A program made the position numbers and the translations under genes. A model generated the notes under the pieces. It did not search any database, was not told where the DNA came from, and worked only from the letters and a program-made list of their open reading frames with translations. Shown in pieces: positions 208 through 12,132 of a DNA stretch of 23,530 nucleotides; the first letter of the stretch is position 1; each line of letters starts with the position of its first letter. Origin of the DNA: a virus; UHGV virus genome UHGV-0262101; one strand, given 5' to 3'.

Positions 208-2586
208 ATGCCTAATATAACCACAAATGTTGTAATTGGGATGCCATCGCAACTCTTCACTATGGCTCGCTCTTTTAAAGCCGTAGCTAATGGCAAAATT
301 TATATCGGTAAAATTGACACTGACCCGGTAAATCCTGAAAACCAGATTCAGGTTTATGTAGAGAGTGAAGATGGTTCTCACATTCCTGTTTCACAACCAA
401 TCATCCTTAACGCTGCTGGTTACCCTGTATATAACGGACAGATTGCCAAGTTCGTAACTGTGCAAGGCCATTCTATGGCTGTATATGATGCTTACGGTGC
501 TCAGCAGTTCTATTTTCCTAATGTACTGAAGTATGATCCTGATCAGCTGCGGGACCAATTAGAAGACATTGATGGCGCTAAGAAGTATCCTGAGTTGCAA
601 ATTGCTCGATGGAGAGATAATGGTGATGTTCGTGGATTTGGTGCTGTTGAAGGTGGTGTTTTATTATGTGATGAATCGTTTAAAGACGCAGAAAGAACTG
701 GGATCGATGTATATGTTCCAGAGGGAAGGTGGCGATTATCGACTCCTATGATCTTGGGTCAGAAGGGAAAATATTATGGTCCAGGATTACTTATTTTTGA
801 TAATGCAGAGTGGTGGAGGAGAGGAGGCTCATCAGGTTCTGAATCTATAAATGAGCGTTATACATTGTTCTATAATTATAATGATAAAGGAGATGTGACA
901 TTAACTTATGACGGGGTACCACAGAGTTTTACTTGGGTTGATGACAGGACAATAGAAGCTCCTGGTAGCTCAGTTAATGTAAGTGTCAGAATTAATATTG
1001 CCAATGGTTATTTAAAACTTGGGCCAGTGGCTGAATTTATTCGATCTTACAATCTTTGTGCCAATGGTGGTGGTGGTGAAAAACTAACCCCGGAGTTACC
1101 AGATCCAACAACAGCGCCAAAGGGTTACGATAATACAGCATTTGGCCCGCGAGCGTTACAGGATCTGACCGATGGTGTTAACAATACTGCCATTGGGTCA
1201 AAATCATTGATGAGTAATATTTCAGGAAATAATAATACCGGAGTTGGCTTCCTGACTTTGTATCGATGTACTGGAACAGGAAACACTGCTGTAGGTTCTG
1301 TTGCTGGCGAGTGGCTAACAACCGGGAGCTATAACTCATTCTTCGGACTTGGTGCAGGAGAAAAAGTTAAGGGCGGTAGATATAACGTTGGAGTTGGCTT
1401 TGAGGCCATGGCTGAGGCTCCAGATACTATTTATACAGTTGCAGTAGGATATCGGGCGAATGGAAATCCTGGAGATTACTCTCAGTCTAATAGTGTATAC
1501 GTAGGCTCTTTTGCCGGAGACTTCTCTATTGGTTCAAATAACACCATGGTTGGCTACAGAGCGGGAAACTGTCTTGGTGCTGCGGAGGCAGCAGGTACAG
1601 GGACTGGGCATGATAATGTTGGCATTGGAATGTTCGCAATGCGCAAGAATCTTGCCGGGAATGAAAGCGTTGTTATTGGTGCTGGAGCGGCAACCGAGTC
1701 AACAATTACAGATAATGTTGTTGTAATTGGTTATGGTGCATGCGGTGAAACTCAAACGCTAGGTTCATTTACCGTTTCTATTGGTCACATGGCACTTATA
1801 GCAGCAACGGGTGATAATAATGTTGCGGTTGGACAGCAGGCATTAAAAGGAACAACATCGGGAAGCAGTAACGTTGCAATTGGGTCTGGCTCTCTTGTCA
1901 CAAATACAACCGGCGCATTAAACACGGCTATTGGACATAATTCAGGTAGATTAACTCAATCAGGGGAAAGCACATCATCACTTACCAACACAACAACTGT
2001 TGGCAATGATGCAAGGGTGTCAGGAAGTAATCAGGTGCAGCTTGGCAATTCTTCCACAACGACATATGTATATGGAACTGTGCAAAACAGATCTGATGCG
2101 CGTGATAAAACAGATATCCGAGATACTTTGCTGGGGATTGAATTTATCCTTGGGCTTCGTCCTGTCGATGGTCGCTGGGATATGCGTGATGATTATATTG
2201 ATGTTATTGAAAAGACAAGAATTGTACCAAAAAAAGTAGAACGAGATGTTGATGGAATTACTATATCAGCTATTGAGAATGTCGAAGAAAAATATCTTGA
2301 AGTAGTGCAGAAAACTCCTGACGGCAGTAAAAAACGTCAACGATACCATCACTGGTTTATTGCACAGGACGTATTGAAACTGTGTGAAAAATTAGGTGTT
2401 GAGTTCGGTGGGCTACAGCATCACTTGAAAAATGGTGGGGATGATGTTTACTCACTCGGTTACGATGAGTTTATCCCACCTATTGTTAAATCAATTCAGC
2501 AATGCTGGGAGAGAATTGATAATATAGAAAGACGTATCGAAGAACTAGAGATGACATTAAAAAAGAATAACTTAAATAAAATATGA
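208..2586 (+). CDS. Tailspike / tail fibre protein: P22-type N-terminal head-binding domain, Gly/Asn-rich repeat central domain, C-terminal S74-type intramolecular chaperone domain
   Basis: Track ORF 115..2586. The N-terminus ([43 protein letters not shown]...YDPDQ) matches the conserved head-binding domain of P22/Sf6/HK620-family tailspikes, which begin M-x-x-I-T-x-N-V-V, so the start is placed at ATG 208 (AGGA about 9 nt upstream) rather than 115 or 199. The middle is rich in N-x-A-[IV]-G repeats. The C-terminus carries SDARDK (Ser-x4-Lys), typical of autoproteolytic S74 chaperone domains. Confidence 0.85.
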
Positions 2587-2608
2587 TATTCAACATAAAA
2601 CAATATGA

Positions 2609-2633
2609 AATCTGCGTCGAAAAGGCGCAGATT
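2609..2633 (+). terminator. Weak hairpin downstream of the tailspike stop
   Basis: 8-bp inverted repeat aatctgcg / cgcagatt with a 9-nt loop, followed by a T/A-rich stretch (gttaattaat). No clean U-tract. Confidence 0.3.
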
Positions 2634-3091
2634 GTTAATTAATATGGTTATGTATGATTTTTCGATGTAATTAACTAAGAGAATAATGTTGTCATGATGT
2701 TGGTGAGAAAATATTCTTGCACACAAAGCTTTGCACTGGATTGCAAGGTTTTGTGATATTCGATAGTTGTTAAGGCGGGTCACACCACCTTTTCATCAAT
2801 CCAATCCGCCCACCACTGCATCATTTCTCTGCGCTTAACGTAGCGGATGCCTCACTATCACACGGTGATGGTTCGTTACTGGTTTGCAGAATGGATAGAG
2901 AACTGAGGATAAAAAGATATCCCAAAACTCTAAAATCTCATCTTTAGGATTTGCAGACAGGTAGGCATGAACAGATACCTACGCATGAAGATGGAACTAG
3001 TCCGGATGCGATATTTTTGGTGATCACGTACATCATCAACGAAGAGCGTTATGGTGAGTTTTATGACTGCCCGGTGATGTGAAAATTGCGA

Positions 3092-3114
3092 TGTGTACCA
3101 AATTGTGTACCAAA
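3092..3114 (+). repeat. Two tandem direct repeats TGTGTACCAAA (putative integrase arm-type sites, P arm)
   Basis: tgtgtaccaaa at 3092-3102 and 3104-3114, same orientation, 12 bp apart. Confidence 0.6.
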
Positions 3115-3343
3115 CTAAAATCATAAACCATGAAACCCTTACCCATGGCTGTTCTCAGGTGGGGTGCGTGTAATCGTGAAAGAGGAAGGTAGGTTGTTTA
3201 TCTGTGTCTGTCATTGTCTAGCATTGTCCACTGTAGTTAATTAACTGTCTGTTATAACTCGAAAAACAACCCTTTTTTCACCTGAGTATGTCTACGAACG
3301 TCAAATATAGTTGTTTACTGTGCGCTGTTGTCCATGTGATATT

Positions 3344-3388
3344 GTGTACCAGATGTGTACCAAACCATTATTTCTGAGCGTACCAAAT
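3344..3388 (+). repeat. Three direct repeats of the same motif next to the int start (putative P' arm sites)
   Basis: tgtgtaccag 3344-3353, tgtgtaccaaa 3354-3364 and gcgtaccaaa 3378-3387. Same motif and orientation as the 3092-3114 pair. The last copy ends 8 bp before the int ATG. Confidence 0.6.
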
Positions 3389-3395
3389 ATTATTT

Positions 3396-4574
3396 ATGGC
3401 TATAAGCGACACAAAACTGCGTACTATTTATGGTAAACCATATTCGGGCCCACAAGAAGTGGCTGATGCCGATGGCCTCAGCGTACGAATTTCACCGAAG
3501 GGGGTCATCCAGTTCCAGTACCGCTATCGCTGGCATGGCAAGCCTAATCGACTTGGGCTTGGTCGATACCCATCCCTGTCTTTGAAGGATGCCAGACAGA
3601 TCACTGCTGACTTGCGAAAGCTCTATTTCTCAGGAACGGATCCACGCACCTATTTTGAAGAGAAGGTGGAGAACTCCATGACGGTCGCCCAGTGTCTCGA
3701 CTACTGGTTCGACAACTACGTCTCTACAACTCTCAGAGAAAAGACCCAGGCACTTTACCGATCAACGGTTATGAAGCGCATGCATGACGCCTTTCCTAAT
3801 CGTCCGGCATCTTCTATCACGGTTAAGCAATGGGTTGACCTGCTTACCGAAGAAGAAAGAGATAATCCACGCCGAGCAAGGCAGGTGCTAAGTCAACTAA
3901 GATCAGCAATAAGTTGGTGCATGCGGCGTCAGTTGATAGATAGTTGCGCAATTATGAGCATCCAACCAAGGGACTTCGGCTCCCGCGCTGAGGTAGGGGA
4001 TCGGGTACTGTCGTATCACGAACTGGCTAAGATTTGGCTTGCTATTGAAAGAAGCCGTGCGTCTACGTCAAATAAGCTACTTCATCAGATGCTTATGCTG
4101 TGGGGGGCGAGGCTCTCAGAGCTTAGGCTGGCAACAAAGACAGAATTTGACCTGCTGGACAACGTATGGACCGTACCGAAAGAGCATAGCAAGATGGGTA
4201 ATGTTATCCGTCGTCCAATCTTCGAACAAATTAAGCCTTTTCTCGAAAAGGCCATGACAACGTACAATGATGTTCTTTTCCCTGGAGAAGACATAAACAA
4301 ACCGATCAGCATCGCTGCAGCCAACCGATTCGTAAATAGAATAAGGGGAGGGATGGATCTAGGTTACTGGCGAACACATGATTTCAGAAGAACGCTTGTT
4401 ACACGTCTGTCCGAGATGAATGTCGAGCCTCATGTTACTGAGCGAATGCTCGGTCATGAACTTGGCGGGATAATGTCCGTGTACAATAAACACGACTGGA
4501 TAGAGGCTCAGCGCAAAGCTTATGAGCTTCACGCTGATAAATTGTTCTGGCACATCAGGAGCATTTCTGGTTAA
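3396..4574 (+). CDS. int: Tyrosine site-specific integrase, P4 / CP4-57 type
   Basis: 392-aa ORF. N-terminal arm-binding-like region (GLSVRISPKGVIQFQYRYRWHGKPNRLGLGRYPSLSLKDAR) and C-terminal catalytic region with HDFRRT, LGH and the SVYNKHDW tyrosine region. Confidence 0.9.
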   Translation: MAISDTKLRTIYGKPYSGPQEVADADGLSVRISPKGVIQFQYRYRWHGKPNRLGLGRYPSLSLKDARQITADLRKLYFSGTDPRTYFEEKVENSMTVAQCLDYWFDNYVSTTLREKTQALYRSTVMKRMHDAFPNRPASSITVKQWVDLLTEEERDNPRRARQVLSQLRSAISWCMRRQLIDSCAIMSIQPRDFGSRAEVGDRVLSYHELAKIWLAIERSRASTSNKLLHQMLMLWGARLSELRLATKTEFDLLDNVWTVPKEHSKMGNVIRRPIFEQIKPFLEKAMTTYNDVLFPGEDINKPISIAAANRFVNRIRGGMDLGYWRTHDFRRTLVTRLSEMNVEPHVTERMLGHELGGIMSVYNKHDWIEAQRKAYELHADKLFWHIRSISG

Positions 4575-4746
4575 CGCCACCGTTAAGAATCCACCCTTCA
4601 ACAGCTTCACGAAGGTATGATTTTGGGTGGGTTCTGACTGGCTTCGGAAATCCGTGCCGTTTGGTATAGTTCCAGATTGTCTGACGTGATGAAACACCGA
4701 GCTTGTTCATCACTTCTTTCTCAGGAATCAGGCTGGTATCGGTCAT
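4555..4746 (-). CDS. xis: AlpA-family DNA-binding protein (putative excisionase / recombination directionality factor)
   Basis: 63 aa, MTDTSLIPEKEVMNKLGVSSRQTIWNYTKRHGFPKPV...EAVEGWI fits the AlpA/Xis pattern. Convergent with int, 3' ends overlap by 20 bp. Confidence 0.75.
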   Translation of the reverse strand: MTDTSLIPEKEVMNKLGVSSRQTIWNYTKRHGFPKPVRTHPKSYLREAVEGWILNGGVNQKCS

Positions 4747-4761
4747 CTTAATTCTCCAGGC

Positions 4762-4785
4762 AAAAAGAAACCGCCATATAGCGGC
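4762..4785 (-). terminator. Possible intrinsic terminator upstream of the xis-like gene (minus-strand sense)
   Basis: Minus-strand reading gccgctatatggcgg followed by tttcttttt. Short GC stem with one G-U pair. Confidence 0.3.
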
Positions 4786-4846
4786 TCTATCAGATATGTA
4801 CAGGCCTCATCGAGTGTGAGGCGGTGTGATTTCTTTATTTCCACTC

Positions 4847-5062
4847 TTAATGTTTGTCAGTGAATGGTTTCTCCATCTCCATTAATGCCTTATTCATCTC
4901 CTTTCGTAACTCTATAGCCATCCTGACGGCTTCAACCTGAGCAGGATGTCGGTTAATTGCTGGAGAATATCGTCGGGAGCGAAGGATTGAGAAAACAAAG
5001 ATAATGCAAGCAACTATCTGAATTGCATTGCATGTTATTGATACAATGTGAATTGCAGCCAT
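4847..5062 (-). CDS. Hypothetical small protein with hydrophobic N-terminus
   Basis: Track ORF of 71 aa (MAAIHIVSITCNAIQIVACIIFVFSIL...). G-rich candidate RBS upstream. No homology recognised. Confidence 0.35.
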   Translation of the reverse strand: MAAIHIVSITCNAIQIVACIIFVFSILRSRRYSPAINRHPAQVEAVRMAIELRKEMNKALMEMEKPFTDKH

Positions 5063-5085
5063 CTACTACCCCCAAAAAACCTCCA

Positions 5086-5253
5086 TCAGGCGGCTGGGTG
5101 TTCTTTCAGTTCTTCAATTCGAATATTGGTTACGTCTGCATGTGCTATCTGCGCCCATAGCATCCAGTGGTCATAGCAGTCGTTGATGTTCTCTGCTTCG
5201 ATAACTCTGTTGAATGGTTCTCCATTCCATTCACCTGTGACTCGGAAGTGCAT
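5086..5253 (-). CDS. Hypothetical small protein (55 aa), not in the ORF track
   Basis: Manual minus-strand translation from ATG at 5251-5253 gives MHFRVTGEWNGEPFNRVIEAENINDCYDHWMLWAQIAHADVTNIRIEELKEHPAA. GGAG lies 7 nt upstream. Confidence 0.45.
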   Translation of the reverse strand: MHFRVTGEWNGEPFNRVIEAENINDCYDHWMLWAQIAHADVTNIRIEELKEHPAA

Positions 5254-5325
5254 TTATCATCTCCATAAAACAAAACTCGCCGTAGCGAGTTCAGATAAAA
5301 GAAATCCCCGCGAGTGCGAGGATTG

Positions 5326-5610
5326 TTATTCATTGCCGATATTCACCTTTATCGCGTACACCTTTACCGGTTTATCGCCGAAGTGAGGATGTGTGATTGT
5401 CTTGATTTCATATCCGTCATACGGGACGTCAATTCTGCGGCTGGAATCGTCGCGCTTCGGATATCCCTTTGTGATAATCAGGCGGTCATACTCCCGGAAC
5501 ATAATTCGCTTATTCCAGTAGTCATTACACAGGCGATACTCTTCCGTTTTCTCTCCGCGAATCATGGCATCGAAGTATTCACCTTTGACGGCAAGTTGCA
5601 GGTTAGCCAC
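5326..5610 (-). CDS. Hypothetical protein (94 aa)
   Basis: Track ORF. GTG start preceded by AGGAGG at 6-nt spacing. Overlaps the stop of the upstream gene by 8 nt. Confidence 0.6.
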   Translation of the reverse strand: MANLQLAVKGEYFDAMIRGEKTEEYRLCNDYWNKRIMFREYDRLIITKGYPKRDDSSRRIDVPYDGYEIKTITHPHFGDKPVKVYAIKVNIGNE

Positions 5611-6157
5611 GGTTAACCTCCTGAGGCGGTTCTGGTAGATGCATCCAGTGGGTTACTCCGTCAATTGGTTCATCGTCGTCGTACTCCAATGCGGCTATAT
5701 AGAACCCGTCACGACGAGAATAAGAAATCCCGGACATTACAATGCCATCCGAAACAACAATAATGTCACCCGTTTCTTCCGGCATTCGCTCACTACAGCT
5801 TATCCAACCACCCGGAGTTACCGGAGAGTTGCCCGATAGTGCATTCTGCTCCAGTGATGCTTTCACAAACCACGCAGCCTGAACTATTACGCCATGAATC
5901 CAGCGCAAATCGGCATCACGATTTTCTTTTTTCATTTTTTCGCCACTTAAAGCCTTGCTTACGTGACTTTTTACCAGATTTTCGTGTAATTCTTTTGCTT
6001 CTTCAATTGTGAAACCACCAGGCAAATTTGGCGCTTCTGCTTCCAGCGATGCCAGAGCAATTTCATAAGCCCGACGCTCAATATTGTCTCGGACGTCCAG
6101 GCTGCCTATACGCTCTCTGATTTCTTTAATCAGTTCTTTGTCGGTTAAAGTGGTCAT
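5603..6157 (-). CDS. DUF551-type phage protein (Eaa-like)
   Basis: 184 aa. C-terminal WISCSERMPEE...DGVTHWMHLPEPP resembles the DUF551 domain common in lambdoid early-left regions. Confidence 0.65.
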   Translation of the reverse strand: MTTLTDKELIKEIRERIGSLDVRDNIERRAYEIALASLEAEAPNLPGGFTIEEAKELHENLVKSHVSKALSGEKMKKENRDADLRWIHGVIVQAAWFVKASLEQNALSGNSPVTPGGWISCSERMPEETGDIIVVSDGIVMSGISYSRRDGFYIAALEYDDDEPIDGVTHWMHLPEPPQEVNRG

Positions 6158-6167
6158 AAATTATGCC

Positions 6168-6404
6168 TCAGTTGTATCCGATTGGATTAACCGCAACAAT
6201 AACGCCATCCGCGAACAAATCTTTAATGAGGTGTTCGCTCGGCTCGCCTTTTTCGTACTCTTCAATAAGGTAAGTGTCTCCATCCTCATTGATATAAACT
6301 GGAAGAATGGAACCGTTGATGAAGTAGGTTCCGTTGTTATCGAGGATTTTTGCCTCGGCGATTTGTTTTTTGGTAAAACGATCTTCTTTTTTCAAAGTTG
6401 CCAT
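6168..6404 (-). CDS. Hypothetical protein (78 aa)
   Basis: Track ORF 6168..6476 trimmed to the internal ATG at 6402-6404 (MATLKKEDRF...), which has AAGGAGA 5 nt upstream and abuts the stop of the upstream ORF. Confidence 0.55.
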   Translation of the reverse strand: MATLKKEDRFTKKQIAEAKILDNNGTYFINGSILPVYINEDGDTYLIEEYEKGEPSEHLIKDLFADGVIVAVNPIGYN

Positions 6405-6405
6405 A

Positions 6406-6594
6406 TCACTCTCCTTTAGTGCGCAAATGGTTTTTCCAGCGGTTTTGCGCCGCGCTGGGCTTTTTGCAAAAACCACAATCCATCATCCCGTAATATTTCA
6501 TCAACCCCATCCGTCGGTTGCTGAGTCTCACCCACTGCCAGACGCCAGGAGCGTTTCTACGAACTAACAGAATCTTTGCTTTACGGTTTTTCAT
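6406..6594 (-). CDS. Hypothetical small protein (62 aa)
   Basis: Track ORF. ATG overlaps the stop of the 58-aa ORF upstream (ATGA) and its own stop abuts the next ATG. Confidence 0.5.
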   Translation of the reverse strand: MKNRKAKILLVRRNAPGVWQWVRLSNRRMGLMKYYGMMDCGFCKKPSAAQNRWKNHLRTKGE

Positions 6595-11478: not shown

Positions 11479-11805
11479 TCAAATAAGTGGTTTGCTGCCT
11501 AATTTCATTTTCTGGCGACCAACACAAGTCACACCCATTTCACTGCGTGGCTTGCTGTACCATGTGCGCTGATTCTTGCGCTCAATACGTTGCAGGTTGC
11601 TTTCAATCTGTTCGTGGTATTCAGCCAGCACCGTAAGGTCTATCGGATTCAGTGCGCTTTCTACTCGTGATTTCGGTTTGCGATTCAGCGAGAGAATAGG
11701 GCGGTTAACTGGTTTTGCGCTTACCCCAACCAACAGGGGATTTGCTGCTTTCCATTGAGCCTGTTTCTCTGCGCGACGTTCGCGGCGGCGTGTTTGTGCA
11801 TCCAT
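11479..11805 (-). CDS. N: Antitermination protein N (lambda type)
   Basis: Internal ATG of track ORF (AGGAGA upstream). MDAQTRRRERRAEKQAQWKAANPLLVGVSAKPVNRPILSLNRKPKSRVESALNPIDLTVLAEYH... is near-identical to lambda N as recalled, including the arginine-rich boxB-binding motif. Confidence 0.9.
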   Translation of the reverse strand: MDAQTRRRERRAEKQAQWKAANPLLVGVSAKPVNRPILSLNRKPKSRVESALNPIDLTVLAEYHEQIESNLQRIERKNQRTWYSKPRSEMGVTCVGRQKMKLGSKPLI

Positions 11806-11977
11806 CTGGATTCTCCTGTCAGTTAGCTTTGGTGGTGTGGTAGGTGGGAGACCCATTTCGACCTGCTTCGGCCGACTTCAATTCGGCAATAGTTCCGCAG
11901 GCCTCGCCGCTTTACGTGCGACATATTCCCATCCATGAACCCTTCACCACACCCCAAAGCCTTCTGCTTTGAATGCT

Positions 11978-12008
11978 GCCCTTCTTCAGGGCTTAATTTT
12001 TAAGAGCG
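11978..12008 (-). promoter_or_regulatory. nutL (boxA CGCTCTTA plus boxB hairpin GCCCTGAAGAAGGGC)
   Basis: Reverse complement of 11978-12008 reads cgctcttaaaaattaagccctgaagaagggc, matching lambda nutL as recalled. Confidence 0.85.
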
Positions 12009-12052
12009 TCACCTTCATGGTGGTCAGTGCGTCCTGCTGATGGCTTAAAATA

Positions 12053-12132
12053 TACCTACAGGTAAAACCCATGTCTATACCTGTAGGTAAATAAAATTGA
12101 TGTGAGAGTTTACCTGCTTGAATTTTCAGGTA
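12053..12132. promoter_or_regulatory. oL operator cluster with the pL promoter region
   Basis: Palindromic 12-mers tacctacaggta (12053-12064) and tacctgtaggta (12078-12089), plus split half-sites tacct (12111-12115) and aggta (12128-12132). Same motif as at oR. Confidence 0.6.

Follow-up and report, generated by a model that had tools for sequence, protein, structure and literature searches.

In bacteriophage lambda, the genes xis and int overlap and point in the same direction, the cII-dependent promoter pI being located inside xis, and sib retroregulation operates. In KplE1, the gene of the recombination directionality factor (RDF) and int occupy opposite ends of the prophage—attP lying between them in the phage form—and are not 3'-overlapping neighbours. 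The modules of the KplE1/HK620/Sf6 type possess an uncoupled and autoregulated int, and in P2/186, int and cox are found on separate transcripts, with the RDF on the lytic one (Panis et al. 2010, PMC2951348). Among the closest described systems is that of phage phi24B (vB_EcoP_24B, HM208303): its inverted int is expressed from a mapped start site of its own and escapes repression by CI, and its xis, which abuts the 3' end of int and is oriented with pL, encodes an experimentally validated excisionase needed for excision (Fogg 2011, NAR 39:2116, PMC3064807).

Comparison of the locus with described modules

The window analysed here is the whole stretch of 23,530 nucleotides from the virus genome UHGV-0262101; its features concerning int and xis are collected in Table 1. 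Its int/xis/terminator cassette is common and already described: it is ~98-100% identical to that of the annotated phages Sf101, HK140 and mEp234 and the Stx phages 2851/1717, and was found in 552 of the 5426 complete E. coli genomes (about one-tenth). Both features considered below—the overlap of the int and xis 3' ends and the hairpin preceding xis—are real but ordinary.

With phi24B, the locus shares a P4-like Int encoded in the orientation inverse to lambda int, an AlpA-like Xis of ~60 aa encoded on the other strand with a 3' overlap in the same frame (17 bp in phi24B vs 20 bp here), the co-orientation of xis with the pL operon, and a hairpin with a T-rich tail upstream of xis. The two differ in integration specificity—the attP core of the present phage matches the sbcB-type core of Sf101/2851—as well as in the hairpin, which has a different stem and lies 21 nt from the xis ATG here vs ~40 nt in phi24B. 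The likeness to the leftward operon of lambda concerns pL, nutL, the N-like gene, xis as the terminator-distal gene of the pL operon, a homologue of orf55, and a hairpin just before xis whose 3' arm and T-run are identical in both. Unlike in lambda, however, int points the other way here and cannot be made from pL, and Xis of lambda is a member of another Pfam family. The locus further resembles the KplE1/HK620/Sf6-type modules in having an int promoter (a candidate one here) in the att region, uncoupled from the RDF gene, an RDF of the AlpA family (TorI in KplE1), and excision that would be controlled through RDF expression. As in P2/186, Int and the directionality factor would be made from separate transcripts, although the gene order and the protein families are different and P2/186 have neither the 3' overlap nor N-type antitermination.

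The cassette is carried by many Stx-converting and serotype-converting phages, and the tightness of xis silencing matters for the stability of prophages and for the dissemination of toxin genes. For phi24B, both the architecture and its logic have already been published, and the hairpin has already been annotated or predicted; finding them here adds little. The gain is a comparative one—an overlap that is frame-locked across Enterobacterales yet dispensable, a pre-xis hairpin acting as a module joint shared with lambda, and an int/xis joint serving as a site of cargo.

Table 1 Features of the window related to int, xis and the leftward operon
Feature	Position	Strand	Details and basis
int	3396-4574	+	392 aa; P4-like tyrosine integrase; ORF listing
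Convergent 3'-end overlap	4555-4574	both	20 bp; ORF listing and sequence
xis-like gene	4746-4555	-	63 aa; AlpA/HTH_17-type putative RDF; last gene of leftward operon
Shine-Dalgarno GGAG of xis	4754-4757	-	7 nt before ATG; read from sequence
Intrinsic-terminator-like hairpin	4787-4760	-	GAGCCGC-TATAT-GGCGGTTT, U-tract TTTCTTTTT
Relic of P22-type xis 5' end	4792-4835	-	codons for SLTLDEAC; ~92% identity over 40 nt to epsilon34/P22-like xis start
71-aa ORF, hydrophobic N-terminus	4847-5062	-	phrog_15342 (2.9e-52), function unknown
Degenerate second lambda-t5-type hairpin	5070-5096	-	GCCGCC-TGAT-GGAGG + T6; aligned with lambda and HK140 hairpins
Homologue of lambda orf55 (lambdap35)	5086-5253	-	phrog_676 (2.7e-39); HK140 annotation note; lambda region
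Tandem pair of terminator-like hairpins before orf55	5273-5324	-	terminator scan
N-like antiterminator gene	11479-11856	-	phrog_271 'anti-termination protein N-like' (4e-27)
nutL	11978-12008	-	CGCTCTTA-N8-GCCCTGAAGAAGGGC; boxA CGCTCTTA (12008-12001), boxB GCCCTGAAGAAGGGC (11992-11978); read from sequence, boxB inverted repeat also scanned
pL-like promoter	12077-12049	-	TAGACA-17-TATATT; best promoter match in scan, 10/12

The convergent int and xis genes

The integrase, transcribed towards xis, contains the Pfam domains Arm-DNA-bind_3 (8.2e-18) and Phage_integrase (1.1e-16) and matches the phrog_1 integrase at 2.6e-74. It shares 98-100% identity with Int of Sf101, HK140 and mEp234, and 57% identity over 391 aa with Int of the Stx2 phage 86, the latter being almost identical to phi24B Int (Fogg 2011, PMC3064807). 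These matches identify it as a P4-like integrase that has an arm-binding domain at its N-terminus and is a homologue of its counterparts from phi24B and phage 86. Concerning the attP side of the gene, the promoter scan called no plus-strand promoter at 3200-3395; a weak candidate recognized by eye, TTTACT-18-GATATT with a TG upstream (3314-3343), falls under the scan threshold, and arm-type repeats (GTGTACCAAA) are positioned between this candidate and the int ATG, a further likeness to the KplE1-type modules.

The 63-aa protein encoded opposite to int exhibits 47% identity to phi24B Xis (E 4e-19) and matches phrog_66, 'excisionase and transcriptional regulator', at 1.9e-8. Its own score against Phage_AlpA (PF05930), 17.8 bits with E 0.0032, is under the Pfam cut-off of 21; 20 of 41 members of its family match PF05930 at E <= 0.01 (the best at 4e-7), and the family profile matches, with an E of 8.7e-5, the PDB entry 8c3t of an 'AlpA family phage regulatory protein', the latter two results pointing to homology with the AlpA-type proteins at the level of the family. 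The phi24B Xis itself has been assigned to PF05930 by HHpred (Fogg 2011, PMC3064807). The NCBIfam search with the 63-aa protein gave no match, and its single-sequence AlphaFold2 model is poor (pLDDT 59.6), comprising three helices and, with regard to a winged-helix fold, no confident wing. A small RDF homologue of phi24B Xis is thus found on the opposite strand, abutting the 3' end of int, and the gene identities proposed in the initial annotation—an integrase and an AlpA-type gene—hold, based on the Pfam domains of Int and the identity to phi24B Xis.

The same annotation's 20-bp overlap of the two genes at 4555-4574 has been confirmed by the ORF listing and by the stop codons, i.e. TAA of int at 4572-4574 (+) and TGA of xis at 4557-4555 (-), the former facing, on the other strand, the codons GTT AAC for Val-Asn in the GG(V/I)N motif conserved in Xis. 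In the survey of 89 distinct relatives—their Int being 49-100% identical—the overlap amounts to 14, 17, 20 or 23 bp, in one fixed relative frame, in 84 of them; the GenBank record of phi24B, with int at 236-1405 and xis at 1389-1571, has the 17-bp overlap in the same relative frame. As judged by sequence comparison, both the overlap and the pre-xis hairpin are conserved beyond chance.

The initial annotation had also regarded the overlap, with each transcript antisense to the end of the other, as a possible way of coupling the directionality of integration and excision. This proposal has been weakened by the following observations. The protein tails encoded in the overlap vary freely among the relatives, and among the 52 loci without an abutting xis, 32 carry an xis homologue farther out on the same convergent strand; in ~30 of those 32 loci, a gap of 0.8-1.75 kb separates xis from the int stop and is occupied, where examined, by unrelated cargo genes. 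Since ~30 relatives carry cargo between int and xis, the overlap is dispensable; it is neither indispensable nor kept in all functional relatives, contrary to the expectation for a regulatory antisense overlap. The terminator scan found no terminator inside the 20 bp, and therefore, an antisense relation, if any, would span far more than the gene ends. The strict frame seen in 84 of the 89 versions could nevertheless reflect some unseen function. The cargo carried by relatives at the int/xis joint includes candidate defence genes.

The leftward operon and the hairpin preceding xis

All genes in the segment bounded by the N-like gene (11856) and xis (4746) are encoded on the minus strand. The pL-like promoter is flanked by palindromic operator-like repeats and located downstream of cI (13184-12498), while nutL has the sequence of lambda nutL. 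The N-like protein, together with boxA and boxB downstream of pL, corresponds to antitermination of the lambda type, and xis is placed, by its position and strand, as a distal gene co-oriented with a leftward operon of predicted repressor control. It should be pointed out that a promoter of xis itself was rejected: the scan called no promoter-like site at 4850-4747 on the minus strand, and the -10 element TATATG, seen by eye in the hairpin loop, lacks a -35 and does not occur in loops of the HK140 type.

The minus-strand terminator scan places the stem of the pre-xis hairpin at 4787-4768 (GAGCCGCTATATGGCGGTTT), with 8 pairs—4 of them G-C and three G-U—and a loop of 4, followed by CTTTTTGCCT. 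Folded alone, it reaches -10.5 kcal/mol (z = -2.78), a stability matched in 2 of 200 shuffles. The hairpin with a T-run at 4762-4785, reported in the initial annotation, is thus borne out, the larger scanned site containing those positions. The region 2500-6500 has nine terminator-like sites vs 3.7 +/- 2.0 in shuffles, and three of the nine (5324-5303, 5292-5273 and 4787-4768) fall between genes of the leftward operon, on the minus strand; in addition to these, minus-strand terminator-like hairpins of the operon are present at 10855-10836, 10205-10188 and 10167-10148. The pre-xis site has the G+C-rich stem-loop directly before a U-tract on the transcribed strand that characterizes an intrinsic terminator; its stem is short, so termination may be partial. 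The Rfam search of the whole window revealed no family at the gathering score, and the matches at 4300-5400 were at chance level only. A further minus-strand hairpin called by the terminator scan, at 4253-4234, was set aside as a terminator of xis: it falls within the int coding sequence, and the protein of the phi24B type has a different peptide at the corresponding place of Int.

In close relatives, mainly of E. coli-type lineages, a hairpin with a T-run is found 21-24 nt before the ATG, with several unrelated stems at that position—GAGCCGC.., AAGCCGCC.., GCCCGGC.., AGCCCTC.. and GCCGC..—preceding the constant T-run and GCCTGGAG, the latter, a part of the Shine-Dalgarno region, being kept even where the stem differs. 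In three versions (L099, L100 and L105), G-C/G-U exchanges preserve the hairpin pairs. The structure is thus kept among relatives while the stem sequence changes, as expected for a terminator, and because the position remains constant at the same time, the hairpin is probably functional. The homologous site in HK140 (GenBank JQ086370) is annotated as 'rho-independent terminator', the annotation being a prediction only; likewise, the lambda hairpin before xis has been predicted as t5 and its phi24B counterpart has also been predicted (Bloch 2014, PMC4195576; predictions only). With regard to the named lambda terminator tL3 as a match for the hairpin, the papers found cite tL3 as a cloning part, without its position. 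On the other hand, in 63 of the 89 distinct versions, mostly the distant relatives, the 110 nt upstream of xis contain no terminator-like site, which means that the gate is not inherent in the int-xis family; the lineage L106-L110 has the T-rich tail of the hairpin on the int strand instead. Lambda, epsilon34 and phi24B each possess a hairpin with a T-run immediately in front of xis, their xis genes being partly unrelated, and the pre-xis hairpin appears as a recurring module joint common to lambda.

Upstream of the hairpin, the relic of the P22-type xis has lost its ATG in the window, the codon being intact in one relative (L098). The inverted repeat at 4804-4822 inside this relic was scanned as a weak plus-strand terminator; it was rejected as a dedicated terminator of int, being a coding relic of P22-type xis that is missing from the HK140-type relatives and so not conserved. 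The 71-aa ORF belongs to a block of ~310 bp between orf55 and the terminator, the block being absent from both HK140 and lambda, where orf55 is the gene preceding xis. The second hairpin has the orf55 stop codon in its loop, one stem position broken (GGCGG to GGAGG) and a z of only -0.9. Nearly the same tandem pair of hairpins as that upstream of orf55 in the window occurs before lambda orf55, the downstream one (GAACTCGC-TACG-GCGGGTTT) being among the predicted lambda terminators (PMC4195576).

Proposed control of xis and the competing explanations

The gene identities and orientation, the overlap, the geometry and conservation of the hairpin, and the N/nutL/pL elements are established; from them we infer that transcription terminates at the hairpin, that read-through depends on N and that the overlap plays no role. 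With a probability of roughly 0.65, the locus represents a compact, cargo-free module of the phi24B type, in which xis is reached only via N-antiterminated pL transcription and the overlap is an inherited compaction. Transcription of int would run rightwards, starting on the attP side and not depending on the lytic operons, whereas the AlpA-like gene, as the putative excisionase, would depend on the leftward early operon as its last gene with no promoter of its own. A polymerase starting at pL would have to pass about six intrinsic-terminator-like hairpins, the last one being that before the xis ATG, and only a polymerase modified by N at nutL would get through to xis. From the N-dependent passage of the hairpins, it would follow that Xis appears only upon induction or in the early phase of infection, with Int available throughout. 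The transcription of xis would by itself determine directionality; the overlap would be a frame-locked, inherited compaction keeping the cognate pair together and no regulatory device itself. The gated read-through into xis suggested in the initial annotation fits this anatomy—the 21-nt gap, the lack of a promoter-like site, the terminal place of xis in the operon and the presence of pL, nutL and N—with the termination itself being predicted; such gating is the standard logic of lambda and not new.

A rather improbable alternative sees int and xis coupled by antisense transcription, int transcripts crossing xis and antiterminated pL transcripts crossing int, with polymerase collision or duplex RNA tuning the Int:Xis ratio as a functional analogue of lambda sib retroregulation. 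The two genes do converge without a terminator between them, and the first plus-strand hairpin with a T-rich tail lies past the xis start (the repeat within the P22-type relic), the int mRNA probably spanning all of xis; an N-modified polymerase would, in addition, ignore weak sites within int, and the convergent arrangement is retained even where cargo has been inserted. That insertion in ~30 natural relatives, however, makes the 20-bp overlap dispensable, and a plus-strand terminator-like site just past xis was found in only 25 of 83 relatives, which means that the 3' ends of int are not conserved. Moreover, the directionality of phi24B has been explained by xis expression alone (PMC3064807), and the literature search for an antisense or convergent mode of regulating the two genes found no relevant paper. 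It is similarly doubtful that mutual antisense transcription after induction, with N-modified polymerase running on from xis through the whole of int and P_int transcripts crossing xis, and not the 20-bp overlap, sets the Int:Xis ratio, thereby substituting for pI/sib in all phi24B-type modules. As a minor variant, the U-tract may pair with the xis Shine-Dalgarno sequence in the read-through RNA, damping the translation of Xis. Ending the int transcript past xis might also be the main task of the hairpin itself, acting as a bidirectional terminator; its placement, where the int transcript should stop and spare the early operon an antisense run, would suit that task, and the plus-strand tail is moderately T-rich in versions of the HK140 type and the L106 type. 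This is, however, highly improbable, the plus-strand side in the window continuing with CTCTATCAGAT and no T-run—an A-run precedes the stem there—and the site not being called in the plus-strand scan.

It is also conceivable, albeit unlikely, that the hairpin is the 3' end of an upstream accessory module, serving as its terminator or RNA stabiliser and as a preferred joint for recombination between mosaic modules, and that its place before xis is a by-product. The orf55 stop codon lies in the hairpin loop in HK140 and lambda, two related hairpin copies flank the 310-bp insertion in the window, the homology among relatives breaks at or beside hairpins, and different upstream modules bring different stems; against these stand the T-run and the Shine-Dalgarno sequence, which remain constant along with the xis module even as the stems differ. 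Furthermore, a hairpin with a U-tract situated 21 nt upstream of a promoter-less gene would attenuate that gene whatever its origin, and this explanation and the N-dependent passage to xis favoured above do not exclude each other.

The convergent int–xis pair and its relatives

The 20-bp convergent overlap of the 3′ ends of int, a P4-like tyrosine integrase gene, and xis, an AlpA-like gene, which the initial annotation had proposed, is borne out by the ORF list and the sequence. The 392-aa Int carries the domains Arm-DNA-bind_3 and Phage_integrase and matches phrog_1. The 63-aa Xis matches phrog_66 (excisionase and transcriptional regulator) and shares 47% identity (E 4e-19) with the excisionase annotated in phage phi24B; it scores under the Pfam AlpA cut-off (17.8 vs 21 bits) and gave no match in the NCBIfam search. 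A profile of 41 Xis-family members, 20 of which match PF05930 individually, hits the solved AlpA-family protein 8c3t (8.7e-5); the single-sequence AlphaFold2 model of the 63-aa protein was too weak for use. The cassette is already known and ordinary: the region is ~98–100% identical to Sf101, HK140, mEp234, HK544 and the Stx phages 2851 and 1717, whose records annotate the two genes with the identical overlap, and it occurs in 552 of 5426 complete E. coli genomes, adjoining sbcB in strain C4.

For 160 loci with Int homologues (42–100% identity) from genomes and viral contigs, the position of the int stop was determined along with that of any Xis homologue. A convergent Xis homologue is found at the int end in 112 of them, representing 89 distinct versions, and since the overlap measures 14, 17, 20 or 23 bp in 84 of these 89 (17 bp in the phi24B record), the relative frame of both genes is always identical, the int stop TAA lying opposite the (V/I)-N codons of the near-invariant Xis motif GG(V/I)N. 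Judged from this comparison, the overlap is an ancestral, frame-locked trait across Enterobacterales, albeit not an obligatory one. No Xis abuts int in 52 loci, 32 of which carry a homologue farther out on the same convergent strand; in the 11 loci examined, the intervening 0.8–1.75 kb is taken up by unrelated genes running in the int direction, and both the Int tail beyond FWH(I/V)K and the Xis tail beyond GG(V/I)N vary freely there.

Features of the int–xis region and leftward operon, and cargo of related loci (locus positions)
Feature	Position	Strand	Remark
Direct repeats	3092-3114, 3343-3388	+	GTGTACCAAA, twice on either side of the attP core, and GCGTACCAAA
attP core	3169-3181	+	TGTAATCGTGAAA
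Promoter candidate	3314-3343	+	TTTACT-18-GATATT; weak, by eye
int	3396-4574	+	392 aa
Hairpin in int	4234-4253	-	GGCCTTTTCGAGAAAAGGCT + TAATTTG
int/xis overlap	4555-4574		20 bp
xis	4746-4555	-	63 aa
Shine-Dalgarno	4757-4754	-	GGAG, between hairpin and xis ATG
Pre-xis hairpin site	4787-4760	-	terminator scan
Its stem	4787-4768	-	GAGCCGCTATATGGCGGTTT, then CTTTTTGCC
Extra block	4788-5096	-	~310 bp
P22-type xis relic	4792-4835	-	40 nt of 5′ end; SLTLDEAC codons; in leader of xis
Plus-strand "terminator"	4804-4822	+	part of relic
Hairpin copy at orf55 stop	5070-5096		degenerate
Other terminator-like hairpins	10855-10836, 10205-10188, 10167-10148, 5324-5303, 5292-5273	-	
N-like gene	11856-11479	-	
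boxA; boxB	12008-12001; 11992-11978	-	
pL-like promoter	12077-12049	-	top match in scan
cI homologue	13184-12498		
Cargo, L139	1203-2138		
Cargo, L140	1247-2701		
Cargo, L151	1209-2096		
Cargo, L142	1201-2193		
Cargo, L144	1213-2526		
Cargo, L114	3684-4526		
Cargo, L162	2895-3452		

The hairpin ahead of xis

The hairpin and T-run noted initially at 4762-4785 fall inside the minus-strand site called by the terminator scan. It folds at -10.5 kcal/mol (z = -2.78 vs shuffles) and ends 21 nt from the xis ATG, an interval in which the scan reported no promoter-like site. In close relatives, hairpin and T-run always stand 21–24 nt upstream of the ATG, the T-run and GCCTGGAG remaining constant despite changes of the stem (GAGCCGC/GGCGGTTT in the window, AAGCCGCC/GGCGGTTT in HK140, and GCCCGGC/GCCGGGT, AGCCCTC/GAGGGCT and GCCGC/GCGGT in the related loci L099, L104 and L113). 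Such a hairpin does not occur throughout the Int/Xis family: only 26 of the 89 distinct versions have a terminator-like site within 110 nt upstream.

The homologous HK140 hairpin was annotated by its depositors as a rho-independent terminator. Lambda, too, has a hairpin of this type, which follows the same orf55 homologue and stands 23 nt upstream of lambda's own, unrelated xis; this hairpin (t5) and the phi24B pre-xis counterpart (t3_24B) are ARNold predictions only (Bloch et al. 2014, PMC4195576). In the P22-like epsilon34, a hairpin with T8 immediately precedes the xis Shine-Dalgarno sequence. A pre-xis terminator-like hairpin thus recurs at this lambdoid module joint.

Compared with HK140 and lambda, the window holds an extra block that separates orf55 from the hairpin and is bounded on either side by one of two related hairpin copies; in the copy at the orf55 stop the stem is broken (GGCGG to GGAGG). 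Within the block, an ORF of 71 aa whose N-terminus is hydrophobic matches phrog_15342, a family of unknown function, and is not called by PGAP in E. coli C4. The P22-type xis relic, also part of the block, has lost its ATG in the window; in the related locus L098 it retains one, giving a 30-aa ORF that runs through the hairpin and overlaps the xis start as ATGA.

A lineage with 87%-identical Int (L106-L110, L118) has a pre-xis hairpin GGCCCCG-AAC-GGGGCC whose T-rich tail lies on the int strand, the xis strand having no T-run, so the same joint may terminate the opposite transcript there. RNAfold of the read-through RNA (4747-4770, minus strand) pairs the U-tract UUCUUU with the Shine-Dalgarno GGAGAA; this weak helix, expected from pyrimidine/purine complementarity, is predicted in every variant sharing the T-run and Shine-Dalgarno sequence. 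The terminator-like hairpin inside the int coding sequence, downstream of xis, is possibly due to chance.

Proposed routes to xis and int

The minus strand carries everything from 11856 down to 4746. The boxA-spacer-boxB stretch (within 11978-12077) reads CGCTCTTAAAAATTAAGCCCTGAAGAAGGGC, which we take to be the lambda nutL sequence, and the operator-like palindromes around the pL-like promoter (TACCTGTAGGTA) are not those of lambda.

A precedent is offered by phi24B, in which int is inverted with respect to lambda, has its own mapped transcription start and is expressed in lysogens, without CI repression; its Int alone does not excise, excisionase activity coming from a small ORF by the int 3′ end, the lambda-xis orientation of which places it under pL/CI control (Fogg et al. 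2011, PMC3064807). The window Int is 57% identical to that of phage 86, described as almost identical to phi24B Int (PMC3064807).

We favour, with a probability of about 0.65, a mechanism in which N-antiterminated pL transcription would be the sole route to xis and Int would come from a promoter of its own, with directionality set by Xis expression alone, in line with the proposal made for phi24B; in this scheme the hairpin would be the last insulator ahead of xis, and we infer both termination and N-dependent read-through. The initial idea of gated read-through into xis stands as plausible, if conventional. Its companion, that the overlap couples the directionality of integration and excision, has been weakened: the ~30 relatives with cargo between int and xis, together with the variable tails, argue against a mechanism residing in the shared 20 bp themselves, convergent transcription as such being unaffected by this argument. 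Antisense or collision coupling appears unlikely.

Equally improbable is that the hairpin marks a mere module end and recombination joint, a role that would be compatible with the gate. Least credible of all is a bidirectional int terminator.

The int–xis joint and the attP region

In ~30 related loci the int–xis joint, empty in the window, accommodates lineage-specific cargo of 0.8–1.75 kb that runs in the same direction as int. Examples include a caspase-domain protein (PF00656, 1.7e-37), a C92 peptidase-like protein, a weak HEPN-like protein and the PADLOC candidates PDC-S31 (6.8e-50) and PDC-S42 (2.4e-37). The joint has the look of a hotspot for cargo or defence genes.

One mismatch, at the first base, separates the attP core of the window from the core published for Sf101/2851, CGTAATCGTGAAA (PMC4159516). 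The direct repeats resemble arm-type Int sites, and TGTACCA is found 6 times (1.7 expected). The right-hand repeats fall between the by-eye promoter candidate and the int ATG, a placement that would fit Int autoregulation, cf. KplE1 (PMC2951348).
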